DNA of 64,000 nucleotides from Alphaproteobacteria bacterium. Lineage in GTDB: Bacteria > Pseudomonadota > Alphaproteobacteria > Bin95. Both the position numbers and the translations under genes were made by a program. The notes below the pieces were generated by a model. It ran no database searches, was not told the DNA's origin, and saw nothing but the letters and a program-made list of their open reading frames with translations. The stretch is taken from positions 256,001-320,000 of the forward strand of contig OZ219787.1 of NCBI GenBank assembly GCA_964291285.2. The letters are read 5' to 3'. Below, in pieces: positions 7,639 through 50,000 of this stretch; within the stretch, counting starts at the first letter, position 1, and every line of letters starts with the position of its first letter.

Positions 7639-9704
7639 CCCGGCGCGCGGGCGGTCCGGTCTTCCTGCGGCACCGAGAAGATCTGGCCGGGGAAGATCAG
7701 GTCCGGATTGCCGATCTGCGCCTGGTTGGCGGCGTAGATGACGGTGTAGCGGACACCCTGGCCGTACACCCTGCGCGCGATGCGCCAGAGGCTGTTGCCC
7801 GGCTGCACCACCACGATGTCGCCCGGCGGGAAGTCGGTGATCGGGTCCGCGCGCTCGAAGGGCAGGCGGATGCGCGAGCGCGGTTCCCCCCCGGGGCCGC
7901 GTTCCTCAACCGTGAGGTCGTAGCGTCCGGGCGCGACATCGCGTTCCACGCGAAGGCGCCATTCGCCCTTTTCGTCCGCGCGGGCTTCGCCCAGCGATTC
8001 GGAGCCGGACTCCGCGCCGGCGATCTTCGGCTCGACGGTCGAGCCGGGCTTCGCCGTTCCGGAAAGCGCCAGATTGCCCTTGTCGTCGTAATCGACCGAA
8101 TCGACGGACACGCCTCCCGGCGACGGCTTGCCGCCGGCCGCTGCCTGCGCCCCTTCCGGGGCAGCCGCCGCCGGCGCGGCCGTCCCGGCGGGCGCAGCAG
8201 GAGCTTCTGCCGCCGGTTTCGGGGACGAAGCGTCGGCGCTGCCCGGCTTCGGTTCTTCAGGGGTCGCCGCGGCCATGACGGCGGGCGCCTCTTCCGTCTG
8301 TTCCTCTCCGGATGCGTCCTCGCCGGTAGCCGCCTGCCGGCCGGCCGCCGGCCGGTCCTGCTCGGGCTTTGCGGGCGCTTTGGCAACGGTCGGGGACGCC
8401 TCGCCGGTCTTGTCTTCCGAGGTCCGGTCCTCTCCGGTTGCCGCCTGCTGACCGGCCGCCGCCGAAGGGCTGGCCGGCCGGTCCTGCTCGGGCTTTGCAG
8501 GGGCTTTGGCGACGGTCGGGGACGCTTCGCCAGCCTTGTCCTCGGAAGGCTGGTCCTCTCCGGTTGCCGCCGCCTGTTGCCCGGTCGTCACCGGAGCAGG
8601 GGCCGGCCGGTCCTGCTCGGGCTTTGCGGGCGCCTTGGCGACGGTCGAAGACGCCTCGCCGGTCTTGTCTGCCGCGGGCCGGTCGTCACTCGTTGCCGCC
8701 GTCTGCCGGCCGGCAGCCCTGTCAGCGCCTTCGTCCCCGGCTTCCGCCTTCCCGGACGCCCGGGTCGCAACCCGGGTTTCCTCCGTCCCGGCGGTTGCCG
8801 GGGCAGCCTTGTCATCGGCCGGCGCCGGTGGCTGCGCAGCCTGTGTCGCGGAACCTGCCGGCGGGGCGGCCTGCTCTCCGGAAGCAGGAGCCTGCGCGGC
8901 GGTCGGAGACGGGTCCCCGCGCCCGCCCGCCGCCGGCGCCGGCTGTGGCCTCTCCCCGGCTTTCGCCGCGTCCTTGCCGGCGGGAGGCTGTTCTCCGGCT
9001 CCGCCGCCTTGTGTCGCACCCGCGCCAGCTACCGCCGCCTGCTGCGACCGGGACCCGGCTGCGTCCGCTCCCGCCGGCTGCGCCGCATCCTTCGGGGCTT
9101 CGGCAAGAACGACCGGCTTTTCAGGAGCGGCCGGGGGCTCGCCGCCGGGCGGGCTTTCGGGGCGCTGGATAACCTCGCTCGCGCCGAAGTCTCCTGTCGG
9201 AACGGCGACCACCAGCGGCTTTCCGCCGGTTCCCTCCGGGATCGAGACGACGATCGTCTTGTCGCCCACTTCCTTCTTGCCGTTCTTTCCGGTCGATTCG
9301 ATCGTCACGGCGTGGTCGCCCGCGGGCAGCGGCTTTTCGGGAAGCGCAACCCACTTGCCCCGCTCGTCGGCCTTCACCGTCGCGAGAGGTCCGTCCTGGG
9401 TGGCGACGGTGACCGACGCGCCCGGCTCGGCCTTGCCGGCGATCACGGTATCGCCGTCCTCGTTGATGCGCACGACGTCGAGTTGTGGCTTCGCCGGCAG
9501 TTCGTCGGGCGCCGCAGCAGGCGCGGCGGCAGGCGTCCCCGACGCGCCCGGCGCCTCCGCGGACGGGGCCGTCTCGGGGGCTGCAGCGGTCTGCGCCGGC
9601 GGCGCCGGCTCCGTCTCTTCGAACAGGTCGGGATAGGCACCCCGCCACAAGGCGTAGAGAACCAGCGCAAGGCCGACGACGGCTATGGGAATAATGCGGG
9701 CCAC
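7635..9704 (-). CDS. membrane-anchored LysM protein with Ig-like domains and a low-complexity repeat linker
   Basis: N-terminal TM helix; LDVVRINEDGDTVIAGKAEPG; SVDSVDYDDKGNLALSG; C-terminal LysM VVQPGNSLWRIARRVYG...IYAANQ...NPDLIFPGQ. Confidence 0.88.
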   Translation of the reverse strand: MARIIPIAVVGLALVLYALWRGAYPDLFEETEPAPPAQTAAAPETAPSAEAPGASGTPAAAPAAAPDELPAKPQLDVVRINEDGDTVIAGKAEPGASVTVATQDGPLATVKADERGKWVALPEKPLPAGDHAVTIESTGKNGKKEVGDKTIVVSIPEGTGGKPLVVAVPTGDFGASEVIQRPESPPGGEPPAAPEKPVVLAEAPKDAAQPAGADAAGSRSQQAAVAGAGATQGGGAGEQPPAGKDAAKAGERPQPAPAAGGRGDPSPTAAQAPASGEQAAPPAGSATQAAQPPAPADDKAAPATAGTEETRVATRASGKAEAGDEGADRAAGRQTAATSDDRPAADKTGEASSTVAKAPAKPEQDRPAPAPVTTGQQAAATGEDQPSEDKAGEASPTVAKAPAKPEQDRPASPSAAAGQQAATGEDRTSEDKTGEASPTVAKAPAKPEQDRPAAGRQAATGEDASGEEQTEEAPAVMAAATPEEPKPGSADASSPKPAAEAPAAPAGTAAPAAAAPEGAQAAAGGKPSPGGVSVDSVDYDDKGNLALSGTAKPGSTVEPKIAGAESGSESLGEARADEKGEWRLRVERDVAPGRYDLTVEERGPGGEPRSRIRLPFERADPITDFPPGDIVVVQPGNSLWRIARRVYGQGVRYTVIYAANQAQIGNPDLIFPGQIFSVPQEDRTARAPG
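8351..8710 (-). repeat. three in-frame tandem repeats (~126-129 bp) in the LysM gene
   Basis: Unit resembling EDKxGEASPTVAKAPAKPEQDRPA starts near 8351, 8477 and 8606 on the + strand. Confidence 0.85.
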
Positions 9705-9767
9705 GAACGCTACCGTTTCGTTACGATGGCAACATAGACCGCGCTACCCGTCGAAGAAAGGTTCGAC

Positions 9768-10325
9768 ATGACGAAGATCGAGAGCGTCTGCGTGTTCTGC
9801 GGCTCCCGGGTCGGGGACAGGCCGGCGCGCCGCGCGCTTGCGGCGGAGACCGGGCGGCTTATCGCGGAGGCCGGCATGCGCACCGTCTATGGCGGCGGGC
9901 ATGTGGGCCTGATGGGCGTGCTCGCCGACGCCGCGCTGGAGGCAGGCGGCGAGGTCATAGGGGTCATTCCCGAATTCCTGCATGAGCGGGAAGTGATGCA
10001 TTCCGGCCTGACGGAGCTCGTGGTGACCCCGTCCATGCACGAACGCAAGGCGGAGATGCATGCCCGCTCCGACGCCTTCCTCGTCCTCCCCGGCGGCATC
10101 GGCACGCTGGACGAGGTTGCGGAGGCGCTGTCCTGGATCAGCCTCGACCTGCACCGCAAGCCGGTCATCCTGGTGGACCGCGCCTTCTGGTCGCCGCTCT
10201 CGCACCTGCTCTCGGAGATGGAGTGCGCAGGTTTCGTCTCGCCGGACCTGCTGGAAAGCACGGCCTTCGTCGAAACCGCAGGCGAGGCGCTCGCCCTGCT
10301 GGCTGAGCGGGGCGGACGCGACTGA
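9768..10325 (+). CDS. LOG-family (TIGR00730) phosphoribohydrolase
   Basis: VCVFCGS, VYGGGHVGLMG, MHERK, LPGGIGTLDE. Confidence 0.92.
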   Translation: MTKIESVCVFCGSRVGDRPARRALAAETGRLIAEAGMRTVYGGGHVGLMGVLADAALEAGGEVIGVIPEFLHEREVMHSGLTELVVTPSMHERKAEMHARSDAFLVLPGGIGTLDEVAEALSWISLDLHRKPVILVDRAFWSPLSHLLSEMECAGFVSPDLLESTAFVETAGEALALLAERGGRD

Positions 10326-45601: not shown

Positions 45602-46015
45602 ATGACGGATATGTTGACAGAGCGCAGACCGGGCAAGTCCGTCGGCGAGGAGCTCAGGCGCCGGGCCGTCGCGGCGGTGCTGGAGAAGGGGATGACCGGC
45701 CGGGCCGCGGCCCTGCTTTTCGAGGTGAGCGAACCCAGCATCTGGCGGTGGATAAAGCGCTATCGGGAGCGCGGCCACCTGCGCGACGCCCCGAAGAGCG
45801 GCCGCCCGTCGCGGACCGAGCCGGAGCGGGAGCGGATTTTCCGCCTTCTGGAGGAGCAGCCGGACCTTTCCGTCCGCGGGCTGCAGCGGGCGCTTGCCGC
45901 CGAGGGCCTGGTCTTCGATCCGGCCACGCTGCACCACTTCCTGAAACGCCACGGCCTCCAGCGCGGCCGCCGCCTCGCATGGCGCCGCAAGCCGGTGCCG
46001 AAGGCCGGCGCCTAG
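45602..46015 (+). CDS. orphan IS630-type transposase N-terminal HTH protein (no DDE domain)
   Basis: ELRRRAVAAV..GMTGRAAALLFEVSEPSIWRWIKRYRERG....KSGRP...PDLSVRGL....ATLHHFLKRHGL; ends before any catalytic domain. Confidence 0.75.
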   Translation: MTDMLTERRPGKSVGEELRRRAVAAVLEKGMTGRAAALLFEVSEPSIWRWIKRYRERGHLRDAPKSGRPSRTEPERERIFRLLEEQPDLSVRGLQRALAAEGLVFDPATLHHFLKRHGLQRGRRLAWRRKPVPKAGA

Positions 46016-46029
46016 CGCACGGCCGTAGA

Positions 46030-46072
46030 CGATTCCAGGCTAATTAAAAATCGGATTTTGAATTAGCCTGAA
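46030..46072. repeat. 43-bp AT-rich palindrome, copy 1
   Basis: CGATTCCAGGCTAATTAAAAATCGGATTTTGAATTAGCCTGAA; arms CAGGCTAATT / AATTAGCCTG. Confidence 0.9.
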
Positions 46073-46175
46073 TTTCGGCGGCGGGGTCGCCGTATGGCGG
46101 CGGCCCGGACTACCCCGTCTCCGGCGGCGCGGACTACGGCGAACTCAGACGGCTTCGCACATCTGATGGCGAACG

Positions 46176-46514
46176 TCACACGCGATTCTTGTCGCCTTGA
46201 ATCTGGACCACGGTGGCATTGTCGCCGGTCACGTCCGCAGTTTGTGGTGCGTGCCTGGCGCTGGCAGCGCCGAGGAGGTCGCGGAGTTCGTCGGCGAGGT
46301 TCGGAGACGCCTCCAACTCCCGCCGCAGGAGGCGCACCAGTGCGTTCCGTGCCTCACCATCGCCAGGATCGGCGGCGAGATGTTCGGCGGTATCGGCCGT
46401 CTTCGAGCCGACACGCCGCCGCATCCATTCCATGATCGGCCCGGCTGCTGCCTTGACCGTCTCAGTTACGAACACGGCAACCGCCTGCACAGCTAAATCT
46501 TCCATATCGTTCAT
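46176..46514 (-). CDS. 112-aa Bell-like helical protein with a C-terminal amyloid-like motif
   Basis: RBS AAGGAG and ATGA overlap with the NLR stop; helical body followed by the tail QTADVTGDNATVVQIQGDKNRV. Confidence 0.75.
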   Translation of the reverse strand: MNDMEDLAVQAVAVFVTETVKAAAGPIMEWMRRRVGSKTADTAEHLAADPGDGEARNALVRLLRRELEASPNLADELRDLLGAASARHAPQTADVTGDNATVVQIQGDKNRV

Positions 46515-49240
46515 CCGTTCGCTTCTCCTTCCTCGCACGCAAGGCACTGAAATGCCTCTTCCACCAATGCCAGTAAAGCCGCATCGGGTTCTTGACCGAC
46601 CTCTTCGTAGCGTTTGCGGTAGTCGTGGATCATCCACTCCATTTCCTGCGCAAAACCTGCCGGCCGCCCAAGGAATGTTTGTTTCAGCAACTTCACGGCT
46701 TCCTCGACGGTAGGGAGTACACCTTCCCGCCGACCGTCCTTCAACAGAAGGCGTGACAAATTGCTGAGAGATTTGGCCAAGTCAGGCAGGAAGATGTGGG
46801 GCGACACGGTGGCCAAACCGTGCCGAACTATTACCGCCTCCCTGGCAGTGGCGAGCGCGTCCTCGTGACGCCCAGCTTTCGAAAGATAAGTGAACAAGTT
46901 GTTAAGCGATGCGGCCAAGTAAGGCAGGAAGGCATCGGGGCGGGTTTCTGCCAAGAAACGATAGACCGTCACCGCCTCTTCCACGGCAGCAAGAGCCTCC
47001 TCCAAATGCCCAACTTCCGACAGACAAACGGACTGGTTGCTGAGGGACGTGGCCAAGTAAGGCAGGAAAGAATCGGAACGAGTTGCCGCCAAGTCGCGAT
47101 AGATCATCACTGCCTCTTTCACGGTGGCAAGAGCCTCCTCCGAACGCCCGACTTTCCACAGACAAGCGGACAGATTGTTCAGCGACTCGGCCAAGTCAGG
47201 CAGGAAGGCATCAGGACGGGTGGCCACCAAGCCGCGATAGATCTTCACTGCCTCTTCGGCGGTAGCGAGCGCATCCTGCTGACGCTCGACCGCCAACAGG
47301 CGGTTTGACAAGTTGCTGAGAGACTTGGCCAAGTCTGGCAGGAAGGTATCGGATCTGGTTGCCGCCAAGCCGCGATAGATCGTCAGTGCCTCTTCGTTCC
47401 CGGAGAGTGCGTCCTCATGCCGAAGCATCTTTGACAAGCAGATCGACAGGTTGTTGAGGGACATGGCCAAGCCGGGTCGAAAGGTTTCAGGATAAGCGGC
47501 CGCCAAGTCGCGATAGACCGTCGTCGCCTCTTCAGCAGTCGCCAGCGCGTCCTCCCGCCGCCCGACCTTCGATAAACAGGCGGACAGGTTGTTGAGCGTT
47601 CCAGCTAAACTAGGCAGGAAGGCATCGGGACGGGCGACCTCCAAGTCGCGATAGATCTTCACTGCCTCTTCAGCAACGGCGAGTGCGTCCCCGCGTCTCT
47701 CAACGTCCGATAGGCGGTTTGACATGTGATTGAGCGAGACCGCCAATAGCGCCAAGTGATTCTCCTCTCGCGTCTCATGCACGAGTGGTTCAATCAGTTC
47801 GGCTACGGCGTGTGCTATCTCCACCGCGATTTCGCGTAATTCCACCGTGTGCCGCGGCATCGCAGCGCTCAACTCAATCAGTGTGGAGAGATCGGTTCGG
47901 GCATCGAAAATCCGCTTAAGCCAGTCCATCGGTTGGCGATGGCCGTGGATGGCATAGTCTTGGCAGGTGCGGATGACGGTCTCCATCGTTGCGACCGGTT
48001 CGGCCTCGTGGGCGCGAACGATGGCGGGCAGAGCGTCGGTTTTTCCTTCCCAGACCGAGAGCAACACGGCCTCGCCGATCATGTCCGGCTCGACCGGCGC
48101 CACGCCGCCGCCGTCGGGCAAGGCGGTGGCGATTACGTCGCGCAACGCCGCCGGTCCGGCGGGGAGGGCGTAGCCAAGTTTGACCGCTTCTTCCTCAAGG
48201 ACAAGGCGCGCTGCCTCCCTCGTCAGCCCTTGACGCAGTGTCGCGACGGCGACCACGTGATCGATCAACGGGCCTAGCCCTTCGGTCACGCCGTGGCCGG
48301 CCACGACCTTGCGGATACGCGACAGCTCGGTTTCGGCGATGTTCAGCGCCAGTGTGTCGGTCCCCAAGGCGAGCACATGACCGAAGTCGGTCCGCGCTGC
48401 CGTGACGGCGGCCATCATCAACAGGAGCGGCACGCCGCCCCAGGTCAACTCGGCAAGACGGCGGTCGAAATCCGCGTCCTCCGGTAGCGTCAGGTCGCTG
48501 CCAAGCCGCGCCAGGGTCCGCGTCAGAATCGCTCGCCGATGGCTTGGGTCGTCGAGGGGATGCAAGGCAACGGGCCGGAGCGGGTCGAGCATCTTCTCGA
48601 CCGTCACCGCGTCGTTGCCACGCCCGAACGCCTCAGCCCACCAGCCGTCGCCGTGTGTCGCATGGCGCTCGAGCAGGAGCAGGCGCAGCGGCCGATTACG
48701 CCCGGCATCGTCCTGGCTCCAGACCGGATGATCCGCCAATTCCTTCAACCAGGCGTTGAGGTCGCGTGCGCTGGCCGAGGCGTAGTCCACGACCGCCAGA
48801 ACCCGAGTACTCCAGTCCCAGGCCGCAAGATTCGTCTGTTCGCGAAAACGCGCCAACCCCTCGCGAGTCAGGAAGCCGGCCCGCCAGCCATCCGCCGCCA
48901 TTTCCTCGACCAGTTCCAGCGCCAACCGCGTCTTGCCGAGCCCGGCCCCGCCGGTCAGCACCCTCACGGAAACCGGCTCGCCGTTGTGCAGCCAGTCGCG
49001 CAGGTCGGACAATTCCGTTTCGCGGCCGATAAGGTCGATGGAACGGGCGAAGGGCCCGATCACCTCAATCTCGTTCGGCCTGCCGGTGTCAGGATCGTTG
49101 CCAATGCGGCGGGACAGTCCGGTGCGCCGTGTCAGTTCCAGATACGGCGTCCCGGCAATGACGGTGTTCCCGTCGCCTTGTATCTGGACGATGGTCGATC
49201 CACTGTCCGCTCTTGCCGTCTGACCCGTATTCCCGCTCAT
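46511..49240 (-). CDS. STAND/NLR-type NTPase with C-terminal TPR repeats and an N-terminal amyloid-like motif (909 aa)
   Basis: N-terminus QTARADSGSTIVQIQGDGNTV; LIGRETELSDLRDWL; Walker A TGGAGLGKT; Walker B LAVVDYA; LRLLLLER; GGVPLLL; eight TPR units. Confidence 0.88.
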   Translation of the reverse strand: MSGNTGQTARADSGSTIVQIQGDGNTVIAGTPYLELTRRTGLSRRIGNDPDTGRPNEIEVIGPFARSIDLIGRETELSDLRDWLHNGEPVSVRVLTGGAGLGKTRLALELVEEMAADGWRAGFLTREGLARFREQTNLAAWDWSTRVLAVVDYASASARDLNAWLKELADHPVWSQDDAGRNRPLRLLLLERHATHGDGWWAEAFGRGNDAVTVEKMLDPLRPVALHPLDDPSHRRAILTRTLARLGSDLTLPEDADFDRRLAELTWGGVPLLLMMAAVTAARTDFGHVLALGTDTLALNIAETELSRIRKVVAGHGVTEGLGPLIDHVVAVATLRQGLTREAARLVLEEEAVKLGYALPAGPAALRDVIATALPDGGGVAPVEPDMIGEAVLLSVWEGKTDALPAIVRAHEAEPVATMETVIRTCQDYAIHGHRQPMDWLKRIFDARTDLSTLIELSAAMPRHTVELREIAVEIAHAVAELIEPLVHETREENHLALLAVSLNHMSNRLSDVERRGDALAVAEEAVKIYRDLEVARPDAFLPSLAGTLNNLSACLSKVGRREDALATAEEATTVYRDLAAAYPETFRPGLAMSLNNLSICLSKMLRHEDALSGNEEALTIYRGLAATRSDTFLPDLAKSLSNLSNRLLAVERQQDALATAEEAVKIYRGLVATRPDAFLPDLAESLNNLSACLWKVGRSEEALATVKEAVMIYRDLAATRSDSFLPYLATSLSNQSVCLSEVGHLEEALAAVEEAVTVYRFLAETRPDAFLPYLAASLNNLFTYLSKAGRHEDALATAREAVIVRHGLATVSPHIFLPDLAKSLSNLSRLLLKDGRREGVLPTVEEAVKLLKQTFLGRPAGFAQEMEWMIHDYRKRYEEVGQEPDAALLALVEEAFQCLACEEGEANG
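46652..47755 (-). repeat. eight tandem 138-bp (46-aa) TPR repeats
   Basis: Consensus LPxLAxSLNNLSxxLSxVGRxEEALAxAEEAVxIYRxLAATRPDAF; span 1104 bp = 8 x 138. Confidence 0.9.
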
Positions 49241-49434
49241 CCGCAGATTATACGGCCCCAATAACAATTGTGCGGCAATCCGATGCCCCGGCTACGCATT
49301 CTCCCACCGGCGCATTTCCTCGACCAAGGCTGCATGGTAGCGGGTTTCGAGCGAGTCCGGGTCCTGCGCCAGAAGGCGTTCGAGTTCGGCCATCCTCGCC
49401 TCCCGGTCCTGCCGGATTTCGTCACGGTCCCGGC

Positions 49435-49477
49435 CGATTCCAGGCCAATTAAAAATCGGATTTTGAATTAGCCTGAA
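49435..49477. repeat. 43-bp AT-rich palindrome, copy 2 (direct repeat of 46030-46072)
   Basis: CGATTCCAGGCCAATTAAAAATCGGATTTTGAATTAGCCTGAA; 42/43 identical to copy 1. Confidence 0.9.
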
Positions 49478-49526
49478 ATTGGAAGGCGAACGGCAGCCCG
49501 CCCCAACCCCTCTCCGCCGCGCGCCG

Positions 49527-49791: not shown

Positions 49792-49809
49792 AATGGGGCG
49801 GCCCCTTTC

Positions 49810-49962
49810 GTCACCCCGGCCCCCGAGCCGGGGTCCAGCCTCGGTTCTCGCGGTAGCCCCGGATCGGGGTCCGGGGCAGGCCTCGGCGGTCGGTCCCGTT
49901 CTCCACCGGCTGCGGCGGCATCGGGAGTTCGGGATGGACCCCGGCTCGGGCGCCGGGGTGAC
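49810..49962. repeat. inverted REP-like doublet (GTCACCCCGG...CCGGGGTCCA / TGGACCCCGG...CCGGGGTGAC)
   Basis: Arms at 49810-49837 and 49935-49962. Confidence 0.8.
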
Positions 49963-50000
49963 GGTGGGGAGGCGTGCAACGCGAAACCGGCAGCCCCGCC

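Follow-up and report, generated by a model that had tools for sequence, protein, structure and literature searches.

The stretch of DNA analysed here, referred to as the window, comprises 64,000 nucleotides (nt) of an alphaproteobacterial genome (assembly GCA_964291285.2, contig OZ219787.1, positions 256,001 to 320,000) and carries on its minus strand two coupled genes that form a candidate amyloid-signalling system, in which a large receptor and a small partner protein share one short motif at opposite termini. The receptor gene (46511..49240) runs from an ATG at 49240 to a TGA at 46513-46511 and encodes 909 amino acids (aa), which the open reading frame (ORF), Pfam and homologues resolve into an N-terminal motif, a P-loop STAND-like NTPase and a TPR array; an in-frame TTG at 49267 is an alternative start that would add nine residues and give 918 aa. 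The small partner gene, identified from its ORF and relatives, occupies 46176..46514 including its stop codon, with an ATG at 46514-46512 and a stop at 46178-46176, and encodes 112 aa. The two genes lie on the same strand and are joined by a 4-base ATGA overlap (46511-46514), and an AAGGAG ribosome-binding site (46525..46530, minus strand) lies within the end of the receptor gene, 10 nt 5' of the small-gene ATG. Two coupled genes of these lengths, with this overlap and this ribosome-binding site, had been claimed in a preliminary description of the DNA, and all of this is borne out. A perfect TATAAT is found at 49247-49252 (minus strand), 6 nt 5' of the receptor ATG and without a Shine-Dalgarno sequence, and the mRNA of the receptor might have little leader or none. 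A scan for promoter and terminator consensus sequences gave nothing above shuffle expectation and did not call this TATAAT.

The receptor N-terminus reads MSGNTGQTARADSGSTIVQIQGDGNTV and the C-terminus of the small protein APQTADVTGDNATVVQIQGDKNRV, with [IV]VQIQGD.N.V common to both. On a 23-sequence alignment the receptor motif spans residues 7-27 (QTARADSGSTIVQIQGDGNTV; 49160..49222, minus strand), and on a 59-sequence alignment the motif of the small protein spans residues 91-112 (QTADVTGDNATVVQIQGDKNRV; 46179..46244, minus strand). Smith-Waterman alignment of tail to head scored 46, against 20.8 ± 4.4 for composition-preserving shuffles, of which 5 in 20,000 scored 46 or more. A count over the whole 6.1-Mb genome, with its 74,536 stop-to-stop frames of 40 aa or more, gave two occurrences in total of [IVL][IVL]Q[IVL].G..N, both at these termini, and when the same genome was searched with the small-family profile the second-best match was the receptor N-terminus. 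The match between head and tail exceeds chance, and the claim that both termini carry the same motif stands on the alignment score and the two genome-wide occurrences. The reported similarity of the underlying DNA was recovered by an independent repeat search, which matched 46186-46214 with 49167-49195 at 83% over 29 nt. The pseudo-repeats described in the tail (VTGDNATV and IQGDKNRV) are weak in this protein, sharing 4 of 8 positions, although a related pattern, G-D/x-x-N ... Q-phi-x-G-x-x-N, recurs in both family alignments.

The identical core in this pair is just 6-7 residues long and, together with the DNA similarity over 29 nt, might suggest a chance resemblance or a functionless by-product of local gene conversion. 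We find this explanation barely credible, considering that the motif is unique in the genome to these two termini, that so few shuffles reach its score, that it is kept in both families at low overall identity (30-57%) and that it recurs in adjacent pairs from at least five distant taxa (Alpha- and Betaproteobacteria, Acidobacteria, Planctomycetes and Actinobacteria). Chance similarity as such was rejected on the genome-unique motif, the shuffle test, family conservation, adjacency and the permutations of 14 pairs presented below.

For the small protein, a word-indexed search found one relative, at 88% identity, and the rest needed an exhaustive HMMER scan; with phmmer, 1.84 billion representatives yielded 71 proteins at E<=1e-3, of which 70 are relatives and one is the query, and 13 proteins at E<=1e-10. 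Lengths range from 53 to 156 aa and are mostly 100-135. In the 59-sequence alignment the sole invariant columns are Q104 and G107, both in the tail, with N110 conserved in at least 90% of members, and the tail takes the general form Q-[TS]-a-x-v-x-G-D-x-n...Q-[IV]-x-G-x-x-N-x-v. Its composition differs from that of the remainder of the protein over the 59 members: Q makes up 10.2% of tails and 3.1% of the rest, N 11.3 and 1.8%, G 14.1 and 6.5% and I 8.5 and 2.9%, with V also enriched, whereas L (1.0 and 13.5%), P (0.8 and 4.1%) and K are depleted. At the other end, the members have in common a hydrophobic N-terminus with an acidic cap, an acidic residue (D/E) being present at positions 2-4 in 51 of the 59. 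The protein from the window has acidic residues at positions 3, 5 and 6, and helix 1 is its most hydrophobic stretch.

From AlphaFold2 and hydropathy, residues 1-86 of the small protein (46257..46514, minus strand) make up its helical domain, in which helices are predicted at residues 3-16, 18-34, 37-48, 53-69 and 71-86. The AlphaFold2 model built on a 59-row alignment has five helices (pLDDT 79.9, pTM 0.65), and a single-sequence model is concordant. Bell and Babybell domains are described as five helices with a hydrophobic helix 1 cupped by the others (Dyrka et al., 2020, bioRxiv 10.1101/2020.01.06.895854; Ibarlosa et al., 2024, bioRxiv 10.1101/2024.11.07.622273; both preprints are cited here and below from the part of their text that was available), and a "MEPIS" signature is given for Bell/Hell/Bab (Ibarlosa et al., 2024). 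Certain members of the small family start with MMEPIS or MDPIS. With five predicted helices and a disordered tail rich in Q, N, G, V and I, the small protein appears Bell-like in its modelled architecture. No family was matched by the small protein in Pfam, NCBIfam or PADLOC, nor did the 59 members match any Pfam family convincingly. EACC1 and HetE-N were considered and dropped; they reached a single member, P0198, below threshold (E 0.033 and 0.049) and are not among the 25 of 69 families listed. A complex prediction with two copies of receptor residues 1-60 and two of small-protein residues 78-112, run with alignments, scored 0.02 and gave no verdict.

The NTPase (NOD-like) module of the receptor (residues ~70-300; 48341..49033, minus strand) was placed by Pfam and invariant alignment columns. 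It contains a Walker A motif GGAGLGKT (residues 97-104), a Walker B motif VVD (D152) and a conserved R192 following LLLLE. Residues 267-273 read WGGVPLL, within a conserved W-G-G-x-P-L stretch that we take to resemble the GxP/GLPL motif of STAND ATPases. The Pfam matches are sub-cut-off, to AAA_16 (2.7e-6, 26.9-28.4 bits; cut-off 32.6) and nSTAND_NTPase5 (5.4e-4, 18.9-20.2 bits; cut-off 34), and a comparison of the module with PDB sequences gave no informative match. The putative TPR sensor array (residues ~500-835; 46743..47743, minus strand) is evident both from Pfam (TPR_12 1.6e-27, TPR_10 6.3e-18) and from direct repeats with a 138-nt (46-aa) period, the copies of which share 67-75% DNA identity. 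Residues 1-69 match nothing in Pfam, in keeping with the earlier statement that the receptor has no recognisable effector domain.

A search of 5.8 billion proteins gave 175 receptor homologues at E<=1e-3, and we tallied the N-termini of 119, being the 120 listed of these 175 minus the window's own entry. Near the N-terminus, 97 of the 119 carry [IVL]Q[IVLA].G.x[NS], and in 65 of these 97 the distance from motif to Walker A is exactly 79 residues. The other 22 comprise 11 gene calls that begin at or after the NTPase, eight variant or unclear N-termini and three long, different N-termini. Within the 23-sequence alignment Q19, G22 and G24 are invariant, and G12, G14, V18, D23 and N25 are conserved in at least 90% of sequences. 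Since the motif is kept in so many listed homologues it must be translated and under selection, and a receptor start 3' of the motif, which would have undone the preliminary description, is ruled out by this conservation and by the constant spacing. Two of these last three homologues have other domains on record at the N-terminal position where most carry the motif, CHAT (PF12770) in P0039 and Trypsin_2 (PF13365) in P0121. The motif therefore occupies what is an effector or adaptor slot, and from these sequences it would seem that effectors are either fused or recruited depending on the member of the receptor family.

The slot bears on a further explanation, in which the small protein would be a regulator, a decoy or inhibitor capping the receptor motif, and the output would come from receptor aggregation or from an unlinked effector. 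In its favour, fold searches do not tie the helical domain to pore-forming domains, and its effector role is assigned by analogy. This explanation seems very improbable to us. The genome encodes no third motif-bearing protein, so no other motif-bearing effector is available, and the fused N-terminal proteases of homologous receptors mark the slot as one that normally carries an effector. The hydrophobic, acidic-capped helix is moreover conserved, and such a helix is reported to be functionally required in Bab (G11K) and in Avast2 (Ibarlosa et al., 2024).

Relatives of the receptor were scanned with one genome per species, for which 79 loci were fetched, and a hidden Markov model (HMM) of the small family matched a same-strand ORF beside the receptor homologue in 13 of the 79, 12 of them with a readable receptor N-terminus. 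The hosts are Alpha- and Betaproteobacteria, Acidobacteria, Planctomycetes and Actinobacteria. The partner lies downstream of the receptor in Methylocapsa (L002), Azohydromonas (L003), an Acidobacteriaceae genome with two tandem pairs (L004), Thalassobaculaceae (L005), Elioraea (L010), Pararhodospirillum (L012), an alphaproteobacterial metagenome-assembled genome (MAG; L018), Planctomycetaceae (L028) and Bryobacterales (L033). It lies upstream in three Solirubrobacterales (L021, L023 and L039), and at L059 a small-family gene sits beside a TPR-only match. Among the assessable loci with a receptor motif of the Q-phi-x-G type, 8 of 9 have the partner. Two loci (L031 and L055) reach a contig edge, and L007 has a truncated receptor and no partner. 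In many of the loci without a partner the receptor is a more distant one with a long N-terminal extension, or the sequence stops at the edge of a contig. Taken alone, the motif section of the small-family HMM also matches receptor N-termini at L004, L005, L010, L011, L012 and L055 (independent E-value (i-E) <0.03), with an i-E of 2.3 at L003 and weaker matches at L007 and L018.

Two observations on individual loci may be recorded here. The tandem pairs of the Acidobacteriaceae MAG (L004:5920-15593) have identical receptor N-terminal motifs, and the first of its small genes is split in two frames (9512-9724 and 9728-9943) by either a frameshift or a mistake in the assembly. At two unrelated loci, L003:1717-2853 and L021:1580-2716, there is 5' of the pair a P-loop ORF of 379 aa, with the Walker A sequence GKPGSGKS in one and GPAGVGKT in the other.

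Starting from the small family, matches were found in 3 of 401 genomes of the class and 7 of 401 genomes of the phylum, the window's genome being counted in both. All three extra class-level matches adjoin P-loop/TPR genes. Of the six extra phylum-level matches, matched pairs are clear at L089 and L094, a P-loop ORF adjoins the small-family gene at L092 and L093 with no motif match in a quick test, and L090 and L091 fall outside the assessable set. The small protein was not found in the genomes of 100 relatives, which included 16 of the same genus and 36 of the same family (the 16 included). The small family is rare in Proteobacteria, yet it is present and paired.

Where one partner has another motif, so has the other. 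One genome of the window's class (G092) has two small-family genes 5' of genes for true NB-ARC plus TPR proteins (PF00931, 41.9 and 37.5 bits). These pairs lie on different contigs (L086:5803-8915 and L087:5807-8493), and each has its own matched motif, unlike VQIQGD: ...GAGAVAIGGNANNARIN against ...GQGAVGIGGDANNAIIN in one, and TASGAGSVA...STITTNV against TASGHGSVA...STITTNV in the other. The small-family HMM matched the partners of these NB-ARC plus TPR proteins with i-E 4.2e-15 and 2.4e-11, as an indirect test of homology to reference Bell domains, which in the published work is set by HMMER from ONI86675.1 (Dyrka et al., 2020). Additional matched variants of the motif were seen in the Solirubrobacterales pairs and at L089 and L094. 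Over 14 pairs the mean cognate score was 44.6, a value reached by 0 of 20,000 permutations, against 30.5 for non-cognate combinations, and the cognate head ranked first in 5 of the 14 and within the top three in 8. This test leaves out L028, where the tail has masked letters and a broken frame, L059, whose locus lacks a receptor N-terminus, and both pairs of L004, of which one has its tail truncated where the locus stops and the other has its gene in two frames. The expectation that homologous pairs keep matching motifs is borne out by both repeated adjacency (the 13 of 79 loci) and joint change within pairs. On the sequences compared, this is the pattern that a modular system would predict, with one Bell-like scaffold, different receptors and a matched tag for each pair. 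The two pairs of G092, in which one Bell scaffold bears two different matched motifs, could be natural material for testing the specificity of signalling.

We consider that the two genes of the window probably encode a Bell/BASS-type amyloid-signalling cell-death pair. The core of the preliminary description, a receptor and a Bell-like partner linked by a shared BASS-like motif, is upheld by family-wide conservation, repeated adjacency, joint variation, the predicted fold and the composition of the tail. Amyloid folding, templating, membrane targeting and the nature of the trigger we infer by analogy from NWD2/HET-S, NLR/Bell and Bab/Agp, and a role in phage defence is suggested on the same grounds. 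In such a mechanism, ligand binding by the TPRs would lead to NTP-dependent oligomerisation of the receptor, and the clustered N-terminal motifs would form a cross-beta nucleus able to template the small protein's matching tail. By refolding, this tail would set free the hydrophobic helix at the N-terminus of the Bell-like domain, and the helix would then attack the membrane and bring about cell death or arrest. The likely purpose would be abortive infection or another conflict response.

Several results weigh against an amyloid-signalling pair of the Bell/BASS type. With regard to the receptor, the NTPase module has no match to the Pfam models of NB-ARC or NACHT, and hhalign with an NB-ARC protein covers the P-loop alone, at a probability of 64%; it is because the P-loop alone was aligned that we call the receptor, from its sequence, STAND-like rather than NB-ARC. 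The "NLR" label it had been given consequently holds in the wide sense of STAND plus repeats but not in the sense of NB-ARC or NACHT. With regard to the small protein, its tail was modelled by AlphaFold2 as low-confidence coil without beta structure. Foldseek against the PDB returned no hit at E<=1e-3 with either the single-sequence or the alignment-based model, and the best VIA-align Z was 5.9, with four chains at Z>=5, all generic helical bundles (certain PYD/CARD rows were seen at Z 4-5). A PDB sequence search with the family profile retrieved designed helical-repeat proteins alone, which is a composition effect. No link to HeLo, MLKL or Bab came from the fold searches, and no Bab chain was among the results of the PDB searches; null results of this kind are uninformative for a short helical bundle. 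The likeness to Bell and Bab is drawn from published descriptions rather than from reference sequences or BASS profile HMMs.

The 14-pair test also has another side. The window's own pair ranked 4th of 14, L002 8th, L039 11th and L012 12th, the permutation signal arises mostly between motif classes, and related pairs are non-independent. The receptor motif is near-constant within the VQIQGDGN class, and cognate specificity there is therefore weak. As for context, PADLOC gave for the receptor just PDC-M16A (E 0.0043, over the P-loop) and for the small protein nothing, and neither protein had a match in phage and plasmid collections. The flanking genes are metabolic, including an N-acyl-D-amino-acid deacylase-like gene, so no defence island is recognisable around the pair.

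A shared motif, adjacency and joint variation would fit any homotypic interaction equally well. On this reading, the main rival, the motif would be a non-amyloid adaptor without a self-propagating, templated fold, recruiting the small protein through finite pairing of beta-strands or a small oligomer in the manner of effector-associated adaptor domains. The lack of beta structure in the modelled tail agrees with this, and the computations used here do not separate a cross-beta polymer from a finite complex. We nonetheless regard a finite adaptor as unlikely. Pairs of NLR and Bell with BASS motifs form prions and fibrils, and these motifs show an excess of Q, N, G, V and I and a deficit of K, P and L (Dyrka et al., 2020). 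In its length of ~20-25 aa, its position at a terminus and a composition rich in Q, N, G, V and I and poor in P, L and K, the motif described here is like such fibril- and prion-forming motifs, and its partner has a Bell-like architecture, which in the tested systems is coupled to amyloid motifs.

An amyloid-signalling pair of this kind would have its closest counterparts in NLR/Bell and Bab/Agp. In common with NLR/Bell pairs as described, the genes are adjacent and collinear with a 4-bp overlap (often found in NLR/Bell pairs), the receptor has a TPR array, and the partner is a small helical protein (~110-130 aa there) whose N-terminal helix is hydrophobic and acidic-capped. Common to the partner C-terminus and the receptor N-terminus is a motif of ~20-25 aa rich in Q, N, G, V and I, and certain homologous receptors have a fused CHAT or protease domain in the motif slot (Dyrka et al., 2020). 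Unlike in NLR/Bell, the NTPase here fails NB-ARC and NACHT, being nearest to AAA_16 and nSTAND_NTPase5, both sub-threshold, and most of the hosts belong to the Proteobacteria, Acidobacteria and Planctomycetes, not to the filamentous Actinobacteria and Cyanobacteria. The published screen covered just the NB-ARC/NACHT neighbours of Bell genes, and would therefore have missed this receptor clade; in Proteobacteria, according to its text, both Bell domains and NLR architectures are rare or lacking (Dyrka et al., 2020), and the genome counts given above agree as to rarity.

Bab/Agp is an amyloid-dependent abortive infection (Abi) system of E. coli (Ibarlosa et al., 2024). As in the window, the host is proteobacterial, the small protein has five helices (109 aa there, 112 here) and the context is that of a mobile element, and the C-terminal motif of the partner matches the N-terminus of a neighbouring large TPR-containing sensor. 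Agp differs in having the make-up TPR-GreA/B-C-PIN, with no STAND NTPase, whereas the sensor here combines a P-loop NTPase with TPRs according to Pfam, and no prophage or defence-island context was seen around the cassette described here.

The proposed logic, in which a receptor N-terminal motif would template the C-terminal motif of a helical, membrane-targeting effector, is analogous to that of NWD2/HET-S and of RHIM signalling (RIPK1/RIPK3), although no relationship of sequence or fold to these was detected by Pfam, Foldseek or VIA-align. A more specific link to RHIM and BASS3 had also been proposed, and it was not sustained. The signature common to RHIM, PP and BASS3 is G-phi-Q-phi-G (Dyrka et al., 2020). 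The core in the window is I-V-Q-I-Q-G, with no G directly before phi-Q, and the two families conserve Q-phi-x-G-x-x-N, in which the residue preceding G can be Q, V, R, S, A, T, K, E or another. The RHIM Pfam model matched neither protein at E<=1 and is not among the 25 of 69 families listed for the 59 members. Avs/Avast and bNACHT systems resemble the pair in uniting a STAND-like NTPase, a repeat sensor and a predicted cell-death output, and they differ in that the effector here is separately encoded and coupled through a short motif instead of being fused; PADLOC gave no match apart from the weak one over the P-loop at E 0.0043. The available text of Kaur et al. (2020, 2021, eLife) makes no mention of this motif or of amyloid coupling for STAND proteins.

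A text search of the literature for BASS or Bell in Proteobacteria and for the motif strings yielded nothing beyond the papers of Dyrka and Ibarlosa, its reach being open papers without their figures and supplements. The suggestion that the system may be undescribed fits these searches, but the motif could be equal to one of BASS1-10, whose logos appear in figures alone. What sets the pair apart from described systems is its receptor clade, its host range and possibly its motif family, BASS1-10 being covered through text searches alone. We hold it to be quite possible, if a little short of probable, that a large unscreened clade of nSTAND5-like STAND-TPR receptors, unseen by NB-ARC/NACHT surveys, uses its own Q-phi-x-G-x-x-N amyloid motif to fire Bell-type executioners in unicellular Proteobacteria, Acidobacteria and Planctomycetes.

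Amyloid signalling from an NLR-like receptor to a Bell-type executioner has been proposed as a hallmark of multicellular bacteria, and the one experimentally proven bacterial case in the text available to us is Bab/Agp, the sensor of which is not an NLR (Ibarlosa et al., 2024). With this locus and its relatives, which number at least 175 homologues of the receptor and 70 cluster representatives of the small protein, the NLR-type version would reach unicellular Proteobacteria, Acidobacteria and Planctomycetes as well as a STAND clade invisible to earlier domain screens. If this is true, NLR-type amyloid signalling would be not a trait of multicellular bacteria but a horizontally mobile module, carried here on a 3.3-kb cassette of low G+C bounded by 66-nt palindrome-bearing repeats. 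With two genes in 3.3 kb the system is compact, and its invariant Q, G and N would make mutational tests of templating straightforward.

The cassette has a G+C content of 57-64%, against ~70% around it. A repeat search found two 66-nt direct repeats, at 46018..46083 on the left and 49423..49488 on the right, which are 85% identical; inside each is a palindrome that is AT-rich and has arms of 17 nt. The two copies bracket the cassette exactly, there are no others in the 6.1-Mb genome, and they may be remnants of attachment sites or the ends of a small mobile cassette. Abutting the left repeat is a 137-aa ORF (45602..46015, plus strand) in which Pfam recognises helix-turn-helix domains only (HTH_32 3.7e-12, HTH_23 5.3e-9, HTH_Tnp_IS630 9.5e-4), and which is probably a truncated IS630/Tc1-like transposase that lacks its catalytic domain. 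Low G+C, the bracketing repeats, the transposase fragment and the absence from the genomes of relatives together indicate, as far as sequence features can, that the cassette was horizontally acquired. The 16S sequence of the host shares 85% identity with that of Methylocapsa sp. S129 and 78% with that of a Bryobacterales genome, values that by identity thresholds are compatible with an alphaproteobacterium of another order. Among the sequencing runs listed, three from one study contain this stretch and one metagenome run contains a small share of it, and none is an RNA run. Just outside the cassette, a G+C-rich 32-nt inverted repeat (49809-49840 and 49932-49963, 94% complementary) looks like an intergenic element of the REP type.

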